From assembly GCA_038841535.1 (NCBI GenBank), contig JAWBTQ010000001.1, positions 32,001 through 96,000 on the forward strand: a stretch of DNA of 64,000 bases. Direction: 5' to 3'. The notes beneath the pieces are model-generated. The model searched no databases. It saw nothing but the letters and a program-made list of their open reading frames with translations, and was not told the origin of the DNA. Both the position numbers and the translations under genes were made by a program. Below, piece by piece: positions 5,059 to 51,793 of this stretch (within the stretch, counting starts at the first letter, position 1; every line of letters starts with the position of its first letter). The stretch is from Sulfolobales archaeon (GTDB taxonomy: Archaea > Thermoproteota > Thermoprotei_A > Sulfolobales > NBVN01).

Positions 5059-5185
5059 ACTTAAACACCGAGTAAGGACGGTGTTATAAGAAAAAGAGCT
5101 CGCTGAACTGTACCAGAATAAGAAAAAGAGTACTTAAATCAACCGCTACCGCACATATCGATTAACAAGAGTCCGGGCCTCTCGC

Positions 5186-5487
5186 AACTGTTTGTGTTTC
5201 TTATCGGTTCATATCGGTTGGTGCTATTCCTCCTACGATTAATGCGTAAACCTCTTTTCCGCGGTCTAGCGGAAACGTTCATAAGTATCTCTACATAGGT
5301 TAGTGAGTGGAGACTCCCCGATGAGGGGTTGAGAGCTCCCTAGGGGCTCTCCCCGAGATACTCAAGATGCGGGGCGCCCGTGGTCGCCCTAAACCCCCTA
5401 AGCCCTATGAAGACCCGAGCGGAGTGCGGGGGAACCAGGATAATGCAATGAATTCAACCAATATAAACTAACATAAGAGCTGAACCC
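5186..5487 (+). mobile_element. Non-autonomous TnpB mini-element, copy A (left end, promoter, leader hairpin, tnpB 3' end/omegaRNA scaffold, right end)
   Basis: Colinear similarity to 28249..28529 (AACTGTTT..TTCATATC; GAAACGTTYATAAG; GATGAGGGGTYGAGAGC; GGCTCTCCCCGAGATACTCAAGATG..GACCCGAGCGGA..GAGCTGAACCC). The 3' part reads RYSRCG, like crenarchaeal TnpB tails. Confidence 0.7.
5272..5285 (+). promoter_or_regulatory. BRE/TATA-like promoter of mini-element A
   Basis: GAAACGTTCATAAG, homologous to GAAACGTTTATAAG at 28294 and GAAACTCTTGTAAG at 9803. Confidence 0.5.
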
Positions 5488-5551
5488 CAAAGAGCTACCT
5501 TAGCTGATACCCGACGCTACTTGATGTCTCAAAGAGCTACGCATACTCAGC

Positions 5552-6754: not shown

Positions 6755-6863
6755 TACACCATCCTCATTAATAACTAGTGTTACAGGTTTTAAACGTAGT
6801 GAGTGAGCTTATTTAACTATTCACTTACTCGATAGAAGGAGTAGGTGGAGGAAAATTGCCAGG

Positions 6864-8000
6864 TTGAGAGAATTCATAGTATCTCTGGTTACGCTGGCGC
6901 TCATCGAGGTTTTCGCCGGGCTATCACTAAAGTTCAATGTCGAGCTACTTGTCGCATACTCTGTCGTACTGATCCTAATACCGGGGCTCATGGACTTAAG
7001 GGGGGATGTTTACGGTGCTATAGGTTACCGCTTCACTAAAGGGCTTCACTTAGGCCTCACTCAACCGAAGTTACTGAATAGGTTCAACTTAATTAACGCT
7101 TCGACAGGCTACGTAAACTCGATTGTAGTGACGTTCCTCCTGTGCTTAATCGGTGTGGGGCTATCTCTAGTGAGTAAGTTGAGCATGCCGGACTTCCTAT
7201 CCCTAATCTTCATAGCCTCATTCTCAACTGTCTCAGTATTCGTTGTACTGACACCAGTTATACTGGCTGTAATCGCCTACATGTTTAAGCTCGGTCACGA
7301 CCCCTCACCCTTCGTGGCAACGGTTGTTACAGGTATCGGAGACGTTATGACTCCTGTAGTCTTGATAGGTGTTGCCTACATGCACGAGCTGTTCCCCTAC
7401 TTCCTCAAAGCTCTATTCGTACTGGCCTCCCTAGGTTTGACGGTAGCACTAACAGCATACATGGTTAGAGTCGGAGAGTTAAAGAACCTCATCGAGAACC
7501 TCGTTTCGTCGACACTAGCGTCTACTGGGAGTAGTCTCGGAGGCTTCTACCTAGCTCTGTCGGTGGGTTTCATCGCCGAGAACCCGGAGATTCTGGGAGT
7601 AATACCAGCCTTTAACGCAGTAATAGGGGCCGCAATGGGCTACCTCAGCAACTCCCTTAACGTAGACTTACACATAGGTACAGACAGATATAGGAATACT
7701 TACTACAGAAACTCTGTTGCGGGACTTATGGCGACACACGCATCAGTACTAACGGCGTTAGCTGCTGTCACTATCTTCTCCAAAAGCGCTCTATCGAGGG
7801 CTCTAACCATCGCCCTCGGTGTAGCTCTATCCTGCTTAATACTGTATTTGGTATCAACTCTAATAACGTACTTACTGACAGTGGTATCGTTCCACCACGG
7901 CTGGGACCCTGATAACTTAGTCTTTCCAGTAATGACTACGTTTGTAGACCTCATGGGGCCTGTAATACTCACTGTTATAGCCATCCACCTACTGCCCTGA
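6864..8000 (+). CDS. MgtE/SLC41-type magnesium transporter (integral membrane part)
   Basis: Duplicated motifs PGLMDLRGD/PAFNAVIG and GHDPS/GWDPDN..PVMTTFVDL; multiple TM segments. Confidence 0.8.
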   Translation: MREFIVSLVTLALIEVFAGLSLKFNVELLVAYSVVLILIPGLMDLRGDVYGAIGYRFTKGLHLGLTQPKLLNRFNLINASTGYVNSIVVTFLLCLIGVGLSLVSKLSMPDFLSLIFIASFSTVSVFVVLTPVILAVIAYMFKLGHDPSPFVATVVTGIGDVMTPVVLIGVAYMHELFPYFLKALFVLASLGLTVALTAYMVRVGELKNLIENLVSSTLASTGSSLGGFYLALSVGFIAENPEILGVIPAFNAVIGAAMGYLSNSLNVDLHIGTDRYRNTYYRNSVAGLMATHASVLTALAAVTIFSKSALSRALTIALGVALSCLILYLVSTLITYLLTVVSFHHGWDPDNLVFPVMTTFVDLMGPVILTVIAIHLLP

Positions 8001-8253
8001 AGCTGAGGCAGGTTACTAAGATCACTTGATCTCTTCAACTAGAACTATAGAGAGTATGTACTTAAGGAGCTTCCTAGATCAAAGGACACTCGATCTATTA
8101 TGTGTATTCCTCTCTAAACCAACTATACAAAAAGTTGCTGAACGTGCTTTCCGCAATATCTTTCCACAATAATAGGTTAGTCGTTAAAGCAAAGGATGTA
8201 TGAGGTGCTATGTAATCTGTGGGCAGGGATTTAGTAGAGAAGAGAACTTGGGT

Positions 8254-8327
8254 TTACTCGAAGTTCGCCTTGAGAACTCTAATAACGTTTTCGTATGCTA
8301 CTTTTCTAAGGTCCCCTTCTGAGAACC
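8254..8327 (-). pseudogene. C-terminal remnant of a membrane dipeptidase (M19)-like gene at the tnpB insertion site
   Basis: Immediately after the element end it reads (G)FSEGDLRKVAYENVIRVLKANFE*, resembling M19 C-termini. Confidence 0.45.
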
Positions 8328-8455
8328 GTTTCCAGCCCCAAGTTTTTGTAGGTTTTTCTAGGACGGGTTGTGCCTCAGCCCTGCGGTTCACTGTGGCTAC
8401 TAGCCACTCTACGCGGGGGTCATGGGCACCGTTCGAGCCCAACGGCACGGGGCTC
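8326..8455 (-). ncRNA. Putative omegaRNA/reRNA scaffold overlapping the tnpB 3' end
   Basis: This segment is conserved in a separate copy at 9864..9991, and both copies end at GGAAACGG. Confidence 0.6.
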
Positions 8456-9463
8456 ACATCCAGTTTTAGGGCTATGTTCCATGCTCCTATTACGTCTCTG
8501 TCGTGTGTGAATCCGCATTTGCCGCATTTTACGGGTCTGGGGCTCCAGCCTCTCCTCTGGGCATTGCCCGTCATTGGAGACAGGCTGGAGCCGTACAGGA
8601 CACTTCCTGGATGTGTTCCTCGGATCTACGAACTCTACTCTTACACCGTGTTCTACTGCTTTCTCTACTAACTGCTTCTGGATCCCTCTGATGACTGATT
8701 GTTTGAGTCTATGGGCATCTAGTGGTCTTAATCTTAATCCATTCTTCTCCAGTGCTCTATCCTGGAACCTCTTGGGAAGCTTCTCCAGAACAACAACAGC
8801 TCTTTCCTCCTTAGCTACCTTAACCAGGAAAGATGCAACCTTGCTCCTCAAGTCTCTTTTGGCATGCTCCTCTCGTAGCTTCCTCAAAGCTATCCTGAGA
8901 GACCTCGTGTTGTTTCCGTACCTCTCCTGGATAGCTCTTCTCCTGTAGGCATAGCCTAGAACTATTTTGCTGTGGTTGGTTACTATTGTTATTGCTTTGT
9001 TGCCGGGGAGTATGAAGAGAGTTACGTTGTTCTCGTTAATATCCACACCGATAACCTTGCTGTACTTCTCCCCTTGCTCAGCACTCCTGGAGAACACTAC
9101 GTAGAGCTTGAGCTTCCCATTCTCAAGCTTCCACCTACAAGAGCTTCTGAGAACCCACCCAGTGTTGTAGTACATGTAGAACTGCTTGTGGAGAAGCAAA
9201 GGTATGTTCACCCACCTCACGTGGGTTTCTACCGAGACTCCCTGGAGAGCAAGCTTCCACATCTGGTTATCGCAACCGACATTCCACTGCTTAACCTCCG
9301 GCTTGTCCGTGAAAGCAAGACCCTTCTTCAGCTTGAGGAAGGACTTCAGCCTAGCAGATGCATCACGTACTGCTTCGATTTCTGTTAACATAATAGCCCT
9401 GGTCCATGCCTTCCCAACCAACTCTAGTTCGAGAGAAGCCTCTAGGAAAGGTTTGTGGAAGCG
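8326..9463 (-). mobile_element. tnpB: tnpB (RNA-guided endonuclease, IS607/IS605 superfamily), 5'-truncated and frameshifted
   Basis: RuvC motifs GVDINEN, VLEKL and DRDVIGAWNI. The Zn finger TSRKCPV[C]..CGKCG is split by a frameshift at about 8593 between ORFs 8420..9421 and 8254..8574. Confidence 0.9.
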
Positions 9464-9759
9464 TTAGTGGGTGGTCGAGAGAGTAAATAGAGTTGAGAGG
9501 GTGTCTACAAAGCATAAATGAGTTGAAGTTTTCTACTCACTCAAACTCAAGCCTAGGTACTTCTTAAACAGCGTTTTAAGGATTCTGTATACTTCTTCGC
9601 ATCCCCGCCCAGCGTTCTGCGCTTCGAGAGCATGCCGCTTAGGCGAATAGTCTCGACCCTAGCTTCCTCGAAGAGCTGAAAAAGCTTGTACGTCAGAGAA
9701 GCCTCTCTAGACTCTGCTCTTTGAGGAGCTCTTTAGCAATTCCGGGCAGCCTTGAGTAG

Positions 9760-9991
9760 CTACTTCGGGTTTCATATCTTTTCGTATTGGTTGATGTGGA
9801 TTGAAACTCTTGTAAGTATCTCTATACGTAGTGATATGTGGAAGTAACTTGATGAAGAGTCGAGAGCCCCGTGCCGTTGGCTCGAAGAGTGCCACGACCT
9901 CCTCGTGAAGTGGCTGGTAGCCACCGTGAACCGCGGGCAAGAGGTACAACCCGTCCTAGAAAAACCTACAAAAACCTGGGGCGGGAAACGG
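9760..9991 (+). mobile_element. Non-autonomous TnpB mini-element, copy B (same leader as A and C, scaffold matching the adjacent tnpB)
   Basis: TTCGGGTTTCATATC (9764), GAAACTCTTGTAAGTATCTCTA (9803) and GATGAAGAGTCGAGAGCC (9851), followed by an inverted near-copy of 8326..8455. Confidence 0.75.
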
Positions 9992-10150
9992 GGATTCCAT
10001 AGTACTCAAGGACCTAGGAGTAGTTAGATGTATTAAGGTGAGGTGTGGCAGTAGGACTCATATCGGGGGCAGCTAAGAGCGAAGATACTCTTCAACCCAG
10101 ATGAAGATAAACAGTATATCCCGTACTGTATGAGGTCTCCGAGGAGGCTT
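9992..10150 (+). pseudogene. Degenerate N-terminal fragment of another TnpB-like gene
   Basis: Broken frames read DSIVLKDLGVVRCIKVR..THIG and RAKILFNPDEDKQYI..YEVSEE, resembling the TnpB WED region. Recognised from memory only. Confidence 0.4.
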
Positions 10151-10249
10151 CTACGACAGATGTAGCTGGGAGAGATGGGCCGACGACACTTAGAGTGAGA
10201 TAAGCTGATGGAAACAGTCTTTGCTAAATCAAAAATATTTTTATATTTT

Positions 10250-11071
10250 TTATACTATTTCCAATAACTCATACGTCAATTCAGATGTCTTAGTTTCCAT
10301 CATGAAGTATACGCATAGTGTATACTCCTTATAATGAGACACCCATATATCTGCCTTAGTTATATTAGCAAAGTGTGGATTATTGGGGTTAGGTGTAAAC
10401 ACAAACTTATCGACGTTTAAGGTAGTGCTTCCGTATGATATTGAAGCTGATGATACATGAGTTAATGTACCTATTTCTGGAGGTGTATAAGGCCATAGTA
10501 TCATTGCAGCCAAGAATTGATGGGGGATGACGAAGAAGTTCATAAATAAGCCTACAGTCTCTGCTACGACGTATTCTGCCATATATGGAGGTATTTCTTT
10601 TCCATTGAACATTACCCTAGGCGTAATTCCAGTCTGTTTTGGAAGCCATATAATGACTGTTGTGTTACCGCTTTCTTCTTCAATTATAAATTCTATCCTC
10701 GTGTATTCCACTCCTCCTACTACTTCAACTCCCTTATTATGGTAATAGAAGATCTCTATCTTTAATTCATTGTCAACGCGGTCGTAATCCTTTAACCTCC
10801 ACTTCATATAACGTACTAAGTTTATGAATTCCTCAAAGGCCTCAATATACTTCTCTTCAGGTGGTGGTGTAGTTGTGTAGGGGGTATACGTAGTAGAAGT
10901 AAGTGGAGTAGTCATCGGTGTTGTTGCATGTGGAGAGGTAGGAGTTGTGTAGGGGGTATACGTAGTAGAAGTAGCTGGACCTCCAGGCTGTAAAGCTGAC
11001 ATTAAGCCATAGATTACAGCAACAGATACTATAGTTACTACAGCCACAACCAAAAATAAAGGTATTTTCAA
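10250..11071 (-). CDS. Membrane-anchored surface protein with Thr/Pro-rich linker; AT-rich, likely acquired
   Basis: N-terminal TM/signal segment, T/P-rich stalk and visibly AT-rich sequence with AT-rich flanks. Confidence 0.75.
   Translation of the reverse strand: MKIPLFLVVAVVTIVSVAVIYGLMSALQPGGPATSTTYTPYTTPTSPHATTPMTTPLTSTTYTPYTTTPPPEEKYIEAFEEFINLVRYMKWRLKDYDRVDNELKIEIFYYHNKGVEVVGGVEYTRIEFIIEEESGNTTVIIWLPKQTGITPRVMFNGKEIPPYMAEYVVAETVGLFMNFFVIPHQFLAAMILWPYTPPEIGTLTHVSSASISYGSTTLNVDKFVFTPNPNNPHFANITKADIWVSHYKEYTLCVYFMMETKTSELTYELLEIV
10871..10973. repeat. 31-bp exact direct repeat (10871-10901 and 10943-10973) encoding TSTTYTPYTT
   Basis: AGTTGTGTAGGGGGTATACGTAGTAGAAGTA occurs twice. Confidence 0.9.
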
Positions 11072-11194
11072 TATTACACCAAATATGATGTATAGTTGTT
11101 GTTTATAAATCTTTTAAGCTAAAAAACACTAAAAATGAGCATTTCATCATAAATAAATTACATGTACCACGTCAGGAACTATTTAAAGTGGACA

Positions 11195-11520
11195 TTATAT
11201 CTTCTTCGTAGAACTTCTTTAGAAGCTCTCCCTATTCCTCATCAACACTACATCGCTATATTCCTGTAGTCAACGTTTTGCGGATAGGCTTGGTACGCTC
11301 CCACACTAAGCTCTCACTCCTGTTTCTCCAGAATGAACTCGCTTAAGGGCATCTTTTGCTACTTCAATATCTATTCGTCTCCTAACACTTCTCTAAAGGC
11401 TCCCTTAGTATTGAAAAGCTCTCATAATCGTCTCCGAGGGATCCCTAGAGATCCCTAGCTCTACCTAGCTTCTCTAGTAAGCAGAGGAGTAGCTTCTCCC
11501 TATTCTCCTACGAGACCTTC
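11195..11520 (-). pseudogene. Decayed 3' fragment of an Lhr-family ATP-dependent helicase
   Basis: Frame-broken peptides AFREVL..DIEVAKDALKRVHSGE..VPSLSA..LQEYSDVVLM..LLKKFYE resemble the archaeal Lhr C-terminus. Confidence 0.55.
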
Positions 11521-11654
11521 CACGGGTTTAGGCTCTCGAACTACACCGACCGTTATCATACCTATGAAGAGTTACTGCTCTACATAAAACATCTCATGGT
11601 TGCGAGGGAAACCGTGAAACGATGGCTTTATGAGTAATCAGCCCCCATGGGGTG

Positions 11655-11732
11655 TGGCGGGCCCGCCGGGATTTGAACCCGGGACCACCGGCTTAGAAGG
11701 CCGGCACCCTATCCTGGCTGGGCCACGGGCCC
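11655..11732 (-). tRNA. tRNA-Arg (TCT), CCA encoded, no intron
   Basis: GGGCCCG acceptor stem, anticodon arm CCGGC-CTTCTAA-GCCGG, GGTTCAAATCC T arm and a GCCA end. Confidence 0.95.
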
Positions 11733-11772
11733 ATTACTCCTCTTAAGCTTTACTGTCGGGCTTTAAATCTCT

Positions 11773-27911: not shown

Positions 27912-28248
27912 CTAGCATAGCCTTATACTTGAAGAAAAATGCGTTAATCTCTTAAGAAATGGATAGACAAGTTTTAGCGCAAGCTTCTTCAATAAACACT
28001 GAGCTTTGTTGGCGATCAAACAGACTAAGGCATTCACTATGAACTACTCACGCTGTCTTGCGAGCTCTTTGAACCTATCTACGGAATGCGTGGAGAGTGA
28101 TATAGCTGGAAACAATTGGACTAGTCTCTCGAAATTATCGCAGCCTACCTCCATATCGTAGCCCTAGTGAATACAGATATGCCCGTAAAGCCACGAGAGT
28201 GGCAATAACCATACTCGCTAAAAAGGGTTCCCTTCCGCAGCCTTGTTT

Positions 28249-28529
28249 AACTGTTTCGGTTTTCATATCTGCTCATGTCTGTCGATATTGATCGAAACGT
28301 TTATAAGCACCTCATGGTGATATGCGTGGATGTACATAGATGAGGGGTCGAGAGCCACTCGATGATCTAGATGATGGCTCTCCCCGAGATACTCAAGATG
28401 TGGGGTGCTAGGGGTCACCCCGAACGCCCCCGAGCCCGATGAGAACCCGAGCGGAATGCGGGGGAAAGAGGACAAGGCAACGAAGTCAACCGATATAAAC
28501 CAAAATAAACCAAAACGAGAGCTGAACCC
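28249..28529 (+). mobile_element. Non-autonomous TnpB mini-element, copy C
   Basis: Homologous to 5186..5487; promoter GAAACGTTTATAAG at 28294-28307; tail translates RYSRCGVLGVTPNAPEPDENPSGMRG. Confidence 0.75.
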
Positions 28530-28885
28530 AGTCGGTTCGGTTACCTAGAGGGTCTCCTGTTTACGTTCATGCTTACAGCCATTGCTGTAATGATCGCCGC
28601 CGCAATTGAATTGATGCTTGAGAATAGTAAAGATATAGTTGTTCAGGTAGAAAGAGGAAGCGGAGAGGAACGTTACCGCGATCGTTAATGGTTCTCCGGA
28701 TGCTCCAAATAAATTGCTCGAGACTTTAGATAAAGAGAACCTACTTGACTTAGTAGTGTAACTAGTGGGTTAGACTCCACTAGGAAATAGAGCTATCAGA
28801 ACGACTCTAAAAAGTGTGATTAGGTACTACACCACCCCCTACTCTCCACCGCTATGGTAACCGCCCGATGTTTCTACATATATAG

Positions 28886-31985: not shown

Positions 31986-32340
31986 GAGTGATGTAGACTG
32001 ACAAACCATGGCAAACAGTCCCTCACTCGGCCTAACCTGGAGACTTATAGAACCTGAAGCTATCGGGTAAACTAGCTTTCAATAGCGAAAGTAGAGCTTC
32101 CTAGCTGTTTCGCTACGCAAGGTTTGTTGAGGTTACTGGCAACATCTTCCAGTCGGCGATGAGTTTAGTAATGTCGTCGACTTCGGGTGGTGATGCGGAC
32201 CTAACCCGGAGCGACTCGGGGGATTGATGAGGTCCTGTGCCGTTAGACTCAGAGGGATACTCGTGACTCCTGCGTGGAGCGGCTTGTAGCTACGATGAGC
32301 CACGGAATGGAAGCTCGATTTGCTCCGGGGGCCTACAAAT
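31986..32340. ncRNA. Candidate multi-hairpin structured RNA of unknown family
   Basis: Consecutive stems: GAGTGA..GACTG/CAGTC..TCACTC, TAGCGAAA/TTTCGCTA, AGTCGGCGAT/GTCGTCGACT, TTCGGGT/ACCCGGA and GGAGC/GCTCC. Repeated GATGA/GATG motifs. Confidence 0.35.
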
Positions 32341-49699: not shown

Positions 49700-50662
49700 A
49701 TGTCGTCTGCTTTACTTAGTGTAAGCGATGTGAGGATATACTACTACACGCTTACCGGGATAGTTAGAGCTGTTGATGGTGTAAGCTTTCAGTTAGCGGA
49801 AGGAGAGGTTCTAGGCATCGCTGGAGAGTCGGGTTGCGGGAAGTCTACACTAGGCTACGGTCTTCTGGGACTAATCCCACCTCCAGGTAGGATCGTGCGT
49901 GGGTCTATTGTTTTAGATGGTATAGACATTGCCAAGCTCAAGCCAGCTGAATTGAGAAAGGTGAGGTGGGCTAAGGTCAGTATGGTCTTTCAGGGAGCTA
50001 TGAACGCTCTAAACCCTGTATACACGGTAGGTCATCAGCTAGCTGAGCCACTAGTCCTCCACAAAGGCTTGAGCGTGAAGGAATCCCTAGATGTAGCTTC
50101 TGAAATGGTTAAAAGAGTCGGTCTAACACCAGAAGTCCTCAAGAGATACCCTCACGAGTTAAGTGGAGGTATGAAGCAGAGAGTTATGATAGCTATGGCT
50201 CTCCTTCTAAAGCCCAGGTTAGTTATTGCCGATGAGCCTACTACGGCCCTCGATGTAGTGATTCAAGCACAAATAATGAATCTATTTAAAGAGATCAGGC
50301 AGGCGGAGAGAAACGCTATGATCTTCATAACCCACGACCTCAGCTTAATTGCTGAGATAGCAGATAAGACGGGTGTTATGTACGCTGGAAAGATGGTCGA
50401 AATAGGGTCTTCTGAGTCAGTCTTTGGCAACCCACTTCACCCGTATACCCAGGGACTTCTTAGGAGCATTCCAAGGCTGAAGGGGAAGGAGAAGATCACT
50501 TGGATTCCCGGGGTTCCTCCAGACCTCAGAATGCCTCCTCCTGGTTGTAGGTTCCACCCGAGGTGCCCGTACGCAATGGACGTCTGCAGGTCTGAAGAAC
50601 CCCCAGAAATAGAAGTAGAGAAAGGACGCACAGTTTCTTGCTGGCTCTACGCAAAGAGGTGA
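49700..50662 (+). CDS. oppD: Oligopeptide/dipeptide ABC transporter ATP-binding subunit (OppD/DppD)
   Basis: GESGCGKS, LSGGMKQR, DEPTTALD, HPYT and the C-terminal CRFHPRC..C..C. Confidence 0.9.
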   Translation: MSSALLSVSDVRIYYYTLTGIVRAVDGVSFQLAEGEVLGIAGESGCGKSTLGYGLLGLIPPPGRIVRGSIVLDGIDIAKLKPAELRKVRWAKVSMVFQGAMNALNPVYTVGHQLAEPLVLHKGLSVKESLDVASEMVKRVGLTPEVLKRYPHELSGGMKQRVMIAMALLLKPRLVIADEPTTALDVVIQAQIMNLFKEIRQAERNAMIFITHDLSLIAEIADKTGVMYAGKMVEIGSSESVFGNPLHPYTQGLLRSIPRLKGKEKITWIPGVPPDLRMPPPGCRFHPRCPYAMDVCRSEEPPEIEVEKGRTVSCWLYAKR

Positions 50663-51720
50663 TGAGCTGTGAGCTCCAAGCTTATATTAGAGAAAGCGTA
50701 TAAGTACTTCCCGTTAAGGAGGTCTCTAGTCGAAATATTAACGCTGAGGAAGCCTAGATACGTTAGAGCTGTGGACGGGATAAGCTTCGCAGTCGATGAA
50801 GGAGAGATTTACTGCCTGGCTGGTGAGTCTGGCTGTGGAAAGACGACTACTGGGAGGCTCGTAGTCAGGTTAATAGACTTTACTGGAGGTAGAGCTCTCT
50901 ACATGCCGAGGAAGGAGCTACTCTCTGAGATACCCTCGACATTCTTAGTTGACGGCAAGTACGTGGACTTAACGGAGAAGCTACCGAGATACGTAGATAA
51001 GCTATTGAGAAGAGACATCCAGATAATATTCCAGGACCCGTACGGGTCCCTTAACCCCAGGATGAGGATTTACGACATCTTAAAGGAGCCTTTAGACATA
51101 CATGGAGTGGGATCTACTGAAGACGAAAGAAGAGAATTAGTCTTTAAGGCCTTAGAAGAAGTAAAGATGACGCCTCCGGAGGAGTTCGCCGAGAGATATC
51201 CCCACATGTTATCCGGTGGTCAGAGGCAGAGAATAGCTATAGCGAGAGCTCTAATACTCAACCCGTCTCTCGTAGTAGCTGATGAACCCGTGAGCATGTT
51301 GGACGTTTCCATAAGAGCTGAGATACTCCAACTTATGCTGGACTTGAAGGCTATGAGAAACCTTACGTACGTATTCATTACTCACGACCTAGCAGTAGCT
51401 GCTTACATCTGCGACAAGTTAGCCATAATGTACTTAGGTGCCATAGTCGAAAAAGGCTCTATATCCAGTATAGTTAACAACCCACTCCACCCGTACTCTA
51501 AGGCGTTGATAGCGGCAGTCCCAGAGCCCGACCCTAGAAATAGGTTCAAAATTAGGGAGGTTCCGATAAAGGGAGAAATACCTAGTGCCGCCAACATACC
51601 TCCTGGTTGTAGGTTCCACCCGAGGTGCCCGTACGCAATGGACGTCTGCAGGTCTGAAGAACCCCCAGAAATAGAAGTAGAGAAAGGACGCACAGTTTCT
51701 TGCTGGCTCTACGCAAAGAG
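50537..51720. repeat. 122-bp exact direct repeat (50537-50658 and 51599-51720) at the 3' ends of oppD and oppF
   Basis: Identical CCTCCTGGTTGTAGG...CTACGCAAAGAG in both genes. Confidence 0.95.
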
Positions 51721-51724
51721 ATAA
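50669..51724 (+). CDS. oppF: Oligopeptide/dipeptide ABC transporter ATP-binding subunit (OppF/DppF)
   Basis: GESGCGKT, FQDPY, LSGGQRQR and DEPVSMLD. Confidence 0.9.
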   Translation: MSSKLILEKAYKYFPLRRSLVEILTLRKPRYVRAVDGISFAVDEGEIYCLAGESGCGKTTTGRLVVRLIDFTGGRALYMPRKELLSEIPSTFLVDGKYVDLTEKLPRYVDKLLRRDIQIIFQDPYGSLNPRMRIYDILKEPLDIHGVGSTEDERRELVFKALEEVKMTPPEEFAERYPHMLSGGQRQRIAIARALILNPSLVVADEPVSMLDVSIRAEILQLMLDLKAMRNLTYVFITHDLAVAAYICDKLAIMYLGAIVEKGSISSIVNNPLHPYSKALIAAVPEPDPRNRFKIREVPIKGEIPSAANIPPGCRFHPRCPYAMDVCRSEEPPEIEVEKGRTVSCWLYAKR

Positions 51725-51793
51725 TTCGTACAGTTTATATAAGGTTTTCTTAGTCAACTTATTAAAACTTATATACTGTAGTCTAACACATAT

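Follow-up and report, generated by a model that had tools for sequence, protein, structure and literature searches.

How a short, gene-less element comes to carry the front of one transposon and the tail of another is the question raised by copy B. It lies in a window of 64,000 nucleotides (positions 32001–96000 of contig C1) from a hot-spring metagenome bin of a Sulfolobales archaeon; the genome amounts to 1.56 Mb in 40 contigs and is 84% complete. Copy B joins the 5′ module that it has in common with two other elements of the window, copies A and C, to a tnpB-tail/omegaRNA scaffold of a different type. The scaffold of copies A and C is named here S1 and that of copy B and of the neighbouring tnpB is named S2. 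An earlier note on this DNA had read the arrangement as independent deletions or module swapping converging on one layout, and hence as a sign of selection for RNA expression or of a specific excision mechanism. Judged from the alignments described below, copy B is the front half of a gene-less S1 relic followed by the guide-RNA tail of an unrelated S2 transposon.

Composition of Copy B

Copy B occupies positions 9750–9991, between the gene of an MgtE-like transporter (6864–8000) and a tRNA-Arg gene. Its parts, its 3′ flank and the two S1 mini-elements (minis) with which it was compared are the following:

9750..9868, + strand: S1-type 5′ module of copy B, which aligns with 31 other S1 minis of the genome and whose ortholog in the relative G002 makes up the first half of an S1 mini
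9750 to about 9800, + strand: left end of copy B, starting with CCTTGAGTAGCTACTTCGGGTTTCATATC
9803–9824, + strand: BRE/TATA-like block of copy B, GAAACTCTTGTAAGTATCTCTA
9851–9868, + strand: 5′ arm of the leader hairpin of copy B, GATGAAGAGTCGAGAGCC
9864..9869, no strand: junction microhomology GAGCCC, present both in the arm of the S1 leader hairpin and in the hairpin that opens the S2 scaffold
9864..9991, + strand: S2-type (IS607-family) omegaRNA scaffold and right end of copy B, ending ..GGGAAACGG
9992..10011, + strand: putative guide segment in the flank just 3′ of the right end, placed by the point where homology among S2 copies ends (..GGAAACGG)
5178..5488, + strand: copy A, an S1 mini with a long left end, TATA-like block, leader hairpin, S1 scaffold and right end ..GAGCTGAACCCC
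28241..28530, + strand: copy C, an S1 mini of the main type

The strings on which the sharing of a 5′ module among the three copies had been proposed were all found in place, each of them rare in the window. The TATA-like block of copy B occurs only once (zero matches expected from shuffles) and has GAAACGTTCATAAGTATCTCTA (5272–5293) as its counterpart in copy A, whose leader reads GATGAGGGGTTGAGAGCT. The leader arm of copy B is matched in copy C by GATGAGGGGTCGAGAGCC (28339–28356) with two mismatches, for 0.08 matches expected. The module is longer than first quoted, extending from 9750 to 9868. The right boundary of copy A (..GAACCCC|AAAGAGC) was set by comparison with G002.

The resemblance of the 3′ part to the neighbouring tnpB tail was also borne out. 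BLAST aligns 130 nt at 86% identity with the neighbour, whose scaffold lies at 8332–8455, and a repeat finder delimits an inverted repeat of 100 nt (arms 8326–8425 and 9892–9991) that is 86% complementary. The scaffold of copy B is 81–86% identical to seven other S2 scaffold loci of the genome, including that of the full-length element on contig C18. The junction was placed by a three-way comparison of copy B, the orthologous S1 mini of G002 (..AGAGCCCGTCGAG..) and the S2 consensus (..GTGAGCCCCGTGCC..). The halves are joined where the earlier note saw them joined, with the limits corrected from GAGCCCC to GAGCCC, a hexamer which in each parent makes up the 5′ arm of a hairpin. The left end of copy B is of S1 type and its right end of S2 type; the two do not come from one parent element.

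There is neither a transposase nor a nuclease gene inside copy B. The only ORFs in the region 9707–9949 are of 80 and 50 amino acids, both on the opposite strand, and the longer one has no Pfam match. A search of Rfam over 9750–9991 returned no curated family, the matches of the window at gathering score being two tRNAs only.

The Two Parent Families

A full-length S1 element is present on contig C19. It is a tnpB-only element (403-aa ORF) and carries, from 5′ to 3′, a left end (..GCAGCTGTTTCGGTTTTCATAT..), a spacer of ~130 nt, a TATA-like block (GAAAGATTATAAAC), a hairpin (GGGGTGGAGAGCT...GGCTCTCCCC) that overlaps the tnpB start, the tnpB gene, a scaffold of 128 nt overlapping the 3′ end of tnpB, and the right end that copy A also has. 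The full-length S2 element on contig C18 consists of a left end (..GTGCAACTGTTTCGATGTGTTAGGTTTATAAAGG..), a 210-aa TnpA, an overlapping and intact 423-aa TnpB, and the right end found in copy B. Its TnpA combines HTH_17/MerR and Resolvase domains (a serine recombinase with an N-terminal HTH) and adjoins tnpB, as is characteristic of the IS607 family. When the two TnpB proteins are aligned, 88 of 292 residues (30%) are identical, and BLAST detected no cross-matches between the S1 and S2 scaffolds. The two scaffolds are, on these comparisons, those of different transposon families, as had been supposed, and not variants of one.

The 5′ module was aligned over 32 loci (31 S1 minis and copy B). 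Its conserved blocks are, in order, the boundary G|CCT, the left-end block GCAACTGTTTCGGGTTTCA, a GGAAAC..TTATAAG block, ~25 nt of weakly conserved spacer, GATGAGGGGTCGAGAGC, a variable loop and GGCTCTCCCCGAG, after which the scaffold follows directly. Compared to the C19 element, the S1 minis lack 1046 nt of tnpB, from ..CCCCGAG| to |ATAC(A/T)CAAGATG, with an AG microhomology. This is one inherited deletion junction common to most S1 minis rather than many independent ones. Read against C19, the module of the three copies consists, in this order, of the S1 left end, the promoter region of tnpB and its opening codons. The GGAAAC..TTATAAG block corresponds to the TATA-like block upstream of full-length S1 tnpB, and the promoter/leader interpretation given to the module in the earlier note is reasonable, the promoter itself being putative and recognized by motif resemblance and conservation. 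We take the label BRE/TATA-like to be appropriate from archaeal promoter architecture and from the conservation of the block. The leader hairpin folds in nearly all S1 copies, its apical stems varying yet still pairing.

The S2 minis carry a left end/TATA module of their own and not the S1 module. They consist of the IS607 left end, a TTTATAAA block and some 10 codons from the start of tnpA; the scaffold is attached at CTAGATGTGAGCC, where there is an ACTAG microhomology. GCAACTGTTTCG is found in the S1 left end as well as in the IS607-type left end of C18. No match to a Y1 transposase (PF01797), as in IS200/IS605-type systems with Y1, was found in the genome (84% complete). Shared ends together with the Y1 result hint that a single IS607-type serine TnpA moves both S1 and S2.

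Some variation of the S1 leader hairpin may be recorded here. In the minis (GGGG..GAGAGCC / GGCTCTCCCC; e.g., 28339–28388 and 5320–5357) its apical part varies in length and in sequence. The hairpin, conserved in nearly all minis, extends over the start codon of tnpB in the full-length element and might act in translational control, in RNA stability or in processing.

Census of Scaffold Loci and Recurrence of the Layout

The genome has 46 S1 scaffold loci. The left end, TATA-like block and leader lie directly upstream of the scaffold in 34 of them (main, A, X and Y subtypes). Four loci are of a short form, with GTT(A/G)CTCAAGATG directly after GGAAAC and neither TATA block nor leader, four have tnpB upstream, and the last four are of other kinds or truncated at the edge of a contig. 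In the Y subtype the left end and leader are clearly distinct, and this subtype seems to keep roughly 15–20 more tnpB-like bases, an approximate figure as the assembly has no full-length Y parent. Strong S2 scaffold loci number eight: the full-length C18 element, the remnant in the window, four minis, a locus with unrelated upstream DNA (C10:298), and copy B. The S2 module precedes the scaffold in 15 of 18 S2 loci fetched from three related genomes; two have tnpB upstream and one resembles C10:298.

Copy B is the only hybrid in the genomes searched, to be compared with the 34 S1 minis and four S2 minis that are dispersed in the genome. When 41 genomes were searched with copy B, matches were obtained in 11, and each of them, except copy B itself, covers one half of the query only; a second S1/S2 hybrid was found neither in this genome nor in the 40 others searched. 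Matches in G002 that seemed to reach 16 nt upstream of the junction (query 104–247) were considered as possible hybrids and rejected. They are ordinary S2 minis whose own leader (..GAGGTAGAGTCTAGATGTGGGCC) is merely similar.

A left end, TATA-like block, leader and complete scaffold recur in separate lineages (S1 main, X and Y, the S2 minis and copy B). To this extent the repetition of one layout is real; most S1 minis share a single inherited junction. For the amplified families survivorship is the best explanation: only derivatives with both ends and an expressible omegaRNA would spread. Copy B itself does not testify to convergence or to a specific excision mechanism, as it is a singleton derived from an ordinary S1 mini that is still intact in G002.

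A specific, recurrent excision or module-swapping mechanism, acting at the RNA level or site-specifically, might also join leaders to the 5′ boundaries of scaffolds. It would account for the independent S2 truncations near the scaffold 5′ boundary, which end 11 nt (S2 minis), about 16 nt (C10:298/L014) and 0 nt (copy B) before the first scaffold hairpin, and, in S1, for the main junction and for a short type whose end falls within 1 nt of that junction. Chance and microhomology may not suffice as a full explanation for the clustering of three independent S2 truncations within ~16 nt. The independent truncation events are nevertheless too few for claiming a mechanistic hotspot, and the amplified families are survivors selected for a whole scaffold. 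Microhomology was sought at the junctions and is present but of the ordinary, short kind (2–9 nt: AG, ACTAG, GAGCCC and the 9-nt TACTGCTTC). Bulge-helix-bulge pairing between the junction sites, which the earlier note had suggested looking for, was no better than in shuffled sequences: the S1 sites gave a duplex of −20.6 against a shuffle mean of −21.0 (150 of 300 shuffles at least as good) and the S2 sites one of −20.0 against −23.2 (233 of 300). The junction of copy B, moreover, coincides with a break of synteny relative to G002. Taken together, we consider a dedicated mechanism very improbable.

Ancestral State of the Site and Origin of Copy B

The genome G002, of the same genus, is collinear with the window over 6804–8331 (89% identity) and 9360–9869 (79%). 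Collinearity runs from MgtE via the intergenic DNA into an S1 mini which, in G002, has an S1 scaffold and right end at the site of copy B. Homology to G002 ends at 9869, inside the GAGCCC that forms the copy B junction. The segment preceding copy B is:

9377..9749, no strand: native intergenic DNA from the tnpB remnant to copy B, collinear with G002 (81.5% identity over 9360–9744)

The presence of an S1 mini at the orthologous G002 site and the synteny break at the junction identify copy B as the product of a one-off deletion or rearrangement. As regards a reciprocal product, neither DNA nor protein comparison gave a counterpart in this genome, 84% complete, for what follows the S1 mini in G002 (2.1 kb or more, with six ORFs); such DNA could be present but unassembled. 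The right flank of copy B (9992–11123) has no match in 30 genomes of the family, one of which contains 11124–11480, and none among the matches listed in nine same-genus genomes. Neither a parent S2 locus nor an empty site for the right half of copy B was recovered from the 30 family genomes.

We therefore regard copy B as probably a fossil hybrid of two unrelated TnpB transposon relics joined by illegitimate deletion or rearrangement at GAGCCC. An old, gene-less S1 mini, already at this site in the common ancestor with G002, would have supplied the left part (9750–9868), with its left end, putative TATA-type tnpB promoter and leader, and an IS607-type S2 element the right part (9864–9991), with its omegaRNA scaffold and right end. 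The halves would have been joined in the lineage of this genome by a single illegitimate deletion or rearrangement, or possibly by a few, at the 6-nt GAGCCC, with breakpoints in the leader of the resident S1 mini and at the first hairpin of the S2 element. Lost in the event would be the S1 scaffold together with the DNA found after it in G002, as well as the 5′ part of the S2 element itself. With the parentage of the halves, the junction, the synteny break and the uniqueness of copy B observed directly, the event itself may be envisaged as a microhomology-mediated deletion. With neither a parent S2 locus nor an empty site to compare, a single deletion cannot be distinguished from an insertion followed by a deletion, or from an inversion or translocation. 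Module swapping as proposed in the earlier note did take place, but it happened once and apparently by ordinary illegitimate recombination.

The joint could also have been created by the assembler, the bin contig wrongly connecting an S1 mini to an S2 scaffold. The bin is in 40 contigs and rich in repeats, and G002 synteny stops precisely at the junction. Against this, separately assembled contigs of four runs from four studies run across the junction with over 100 nt to either side of it (9651–9975 in three runs, 9264–9975 in one) and show no differences, and the shared sequence of 6 nt is too short to mislead an assembler. An artefact is thus hardly credible, and the origin by illegitimate recombination is retained.

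Variation between strains was seen to the right of copy B. Contigs in three of the four metagenome runs skip 203 nt (window 10045–10247); they stem from a more divergent and more abundant relative, and the skip is an indel between strains. Two metagenome contigs have loose ends at 9993, which may reflect an empty-site variant. The right flank (9992–11100) is A+T-rich and strain-specific, and contains an ORF of 273 amino acids (10250–11071, minus strand) with a weak, sub-threshold Pfam match only.

The Neighbouring tnpB Remnant

A second S2-type relic lies between the MgtE-like gene and copy B, with the following features:

8332..9376, − strand: S2-type tnpB remnant with omegaRNA scaffold (8332–8455), 5′-truncated and with a frameshift in the zinc-ribbon (TNB) domain
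8254..8331, − strand: 3′ end of a dipeptidase-like host gene; homology to G002, which has the whole gene, stops at 8331
9368..9376, no strand: the 9-nt microhomology TACTGCTTC, where the truncated tnpB meets native intergenic DNA at a second deletion junction

From tnpB codon ~65 on, the remnant matches the intact C18 element at 83% identity, approximately the first 65 codons being missing, and its Pfam Cas12f1-like_TNB domain is divided between two reading frames. Beyond 9376 there is no further homology to C18 tnpB, and G002 becomes clearly homologous from ~9368. The remnant has replaced ~1 kb of the host gene, which its translation suggests to be dipeptidase-like; the last 78 nt are left and are read through in frame with the tnpB tail ORF. 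A sister relationship of the copy B scaffold with this remnant may be considered: the tree has 14 of its 22 inner branches open, and the remnant is nearest by raw identity alone (86%).

Decay, RNA Structure and Possible Function of Copy B

If transcribed, copy B would produce the leader, the S2 omegaRNA and a guide derived from the flank, an RNA that the intact C18 TnpB might use in trans. None of the 14 runs listed for this DNA is recorded as an RNA run. The hybrid could accordingly have been kept as a functional capture, its S1 promoter/leader driving an S2 omegaRNA as an orphan guide-RNA gene for that nuclease. The S2 scaffold consensus, compared over 25 complete copies, has 37 pairs, several of them with compensatory changes. 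The C18 scaffold keeps all 37 and copy B keeps 32, including a stem that is improved in copy B (CACGA/UCGUG). In favour of capture there are also the intact 423-aa S2 TnpB in the genome, the hybrid found unchanged in contigs from four studies, and a layout that mirrors the one of the successful minis.

Several properties of copy B argue against it. It is a singleton. Its 5′ module is 71% identical to the G002 ortholog (92 of 129 positions), less than the adjoining intergenic DNA (81.5%, 321 of 394); the spacer at 8001–8331 reaches 82% and the MgtE gene 91%. Both the left-end core (AGCTACTTCGGG versus CAACTGTTTCGGG in the family) and the TATA-like block depart from the family consensus. The 32 pairs kept are tied for the lowest count among the 25 complete copies, and two 1-nt deletions in stems of the scaffold break pairs. 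In the single-sequence fold the S1-derived GAGUCGA is able to compete with the first scaffold stem. The first 16–18 nt of the putative guide (16-mers starting at 9992–9994) have no other match with 0–1 mismatch in the assembly, leaving its own flank as the only target at that stringency. Capture of a promoter for a function in trans is thus unlikely.

Copy B differs from the majority base at 22 of 131 scaffold columns, within the range of 5–28 for all copies, and single-sequence folds gave z = −2.7 for copy B and z = 0.08 for copy C, neither value being informative by itself. No sign of selection on copy B was seen in the identities to G002, the consensus pairs and the majority bases. It is most likely a drifting relic with little or no function, although a residual one is possible given the 32 of 37 pairs kept and the presence of an intact S2 TnpB.

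A broader proposal is that the minis are guide-RNA genes selected for omegaRNA expression, with interchangeable promoters and scaffolds of which copy B would be a live example, that one serine TnpA moves both families, and that the clustering of breakpoints is tied to the omegaRNA 5′ end. We hold this combination to be unlikely. If true, each mini would be an archaeal TATA promoter and structured leader expressing an omegaRNA for a TnpB made elsewhere. The S1 promoter of copy B would drive an S2 omegaRNA for the C18 TnpB, and the shared GCAACTGTTTCG of the left ends would reflect one IS607-type TnpA for both families. Breakpoints within ~16 nt of the first scaffold hairpin would then result from selection for the omegaRNA 5′ end or from a mechanism tied to it.

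Relation to Known Elements

MITEs and recombinant or nested transposon relics include mosaic remnants that arise by deletion between neighbouring or nested elements. Copy B is likewise a mosaic, and other S1/S2 neighbours are found at C1:222950–223920 and C6:10978–11716. It differs from those nested loci in that its breakpoints leave an apparently complete promoter-to-scaffold unit.

The closest published counterparts of the minis are PATE-like elements, gene-less derivatives of IS200/IS605-type transposons, which in Haloquadratum are described as formed by core deletion at short repeats (PMC3119063), while the PATE-like elements of Geobacillus "often encode omegaRNAs" and are acted on in trans (PMC10055086). 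As far as the available text of both papers goes, the S1 and S2 minis resemble them in having no protein gene, in keeping both transposon ends, and in an omegaRNA scaffold at the right end overlapping the 3′ end of tnpB. They are further alike in their origin by internal deletion at short repeats, in their many copies and, by analogy, in TnpA and TnpB being provided in trans. The minis of this genome keep in addition a putative TATA-type promoter and a conserved leader hairpin, which do not appear in the portions of the PATE descriptions available. Copy B departs from the pattern given there by its single copy and by ends that come from two families. The idea that mobile elements target other mobile elements appears as a remark in the accessible part of the Haloquadratum paper (PMC3119063).

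IS607-family transposons with TnpB and omegaRNA are outlined in the available text of 10.1101/2023.11.20.567912 as a serine-recombinase TnpA followed by tnpB. The C18 S2 element agrees with that outline: an HTH + Resolvase TnpA precedes tnpB, the omegaRNA is at the right end, there are no inverted repeats, and both ends contain GG. Measured against the same partial account, copy B keeps only the right end and scaffold, resides in an archaeal host and has no group I intron.

In line with the published ideas on PATEs, S1 and S2 have both given PATE/MITE-like minis keeping both ends, a putative promoter of their own and the whole omegaRNA, a layout expected for non-autonomous elements dependent on TnpB in trans. 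Two unrelated TnpB families, each with abundant minis carrying a putative promoter and an omegaRNA, lend support to the idea of TnpB acting in trans, and the minis offer a compact natural set of archaeal promoter–omegaRNA units (the promoters being putative) for trials of it. Copy B illustrates how guide-RNA transposon relics decay and recombine in a hot-spring archaeon, where such relics mark several rearrangement breakpoints between same-genus genomes. Taken alone it is a curiosity, and would matter only if expressed and used.

Other Loci in the Window and in the Genome

The S1 and S2 left ends (window 9750–9775 and 28241–28265; 85–115 of locus L033 on C18) share GCAACTGTTT(C/T)G at the same distance of ~9–10 nt from the boundary, and the right ends of both families share AGAGC.G.AA.C. 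Copy A has a twin at C10:14491–14802 that is identical over the first 89 nt and 88% identical overall. In G002 the left flank of this twin is joined directly to the right flank of copy A (..CTACTCAG-TC-AAAGAGC..), a joint that represents an empty site or else a rearrangement in which two minis recombined.

On the same contig as the window, an S2 mini is nested in a decayed S1 tnpB element (C1:222800–223500, the locus extending upstream to C1:223920), with tnpB fragments upstream and an S1 scaffold 68 nt downstream of the S2 right end. At C6:10800–11800 a decayed IS607-type element (a resolvase gene with stop codons and a tnpB fragment) ends where an S1 mini begins (..GGCTACG|CCTCGTGAAACTG..). 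The tnpB sequence at this joint is ..GGCTACGCCTACAGG..; its CCT may be a target or a microhomology.

Repeats of other kinds were also noted. The tRNA-Arg(TCT) gene and ~170 nt downstream of it (window 11485–11733) are repeated at 98% identity at C2:25099–25347. Segments made of a tRNA and 120–200 nt recur in this genome and in other same-genus genomes and may represent integration-site duplications or a tRNA-linked repeat. Finally, a 127-nt direct repeat (window 50537–50663 and 51599–51725) is 98% identical between its two units, which are 1062 nt apart from start to start.
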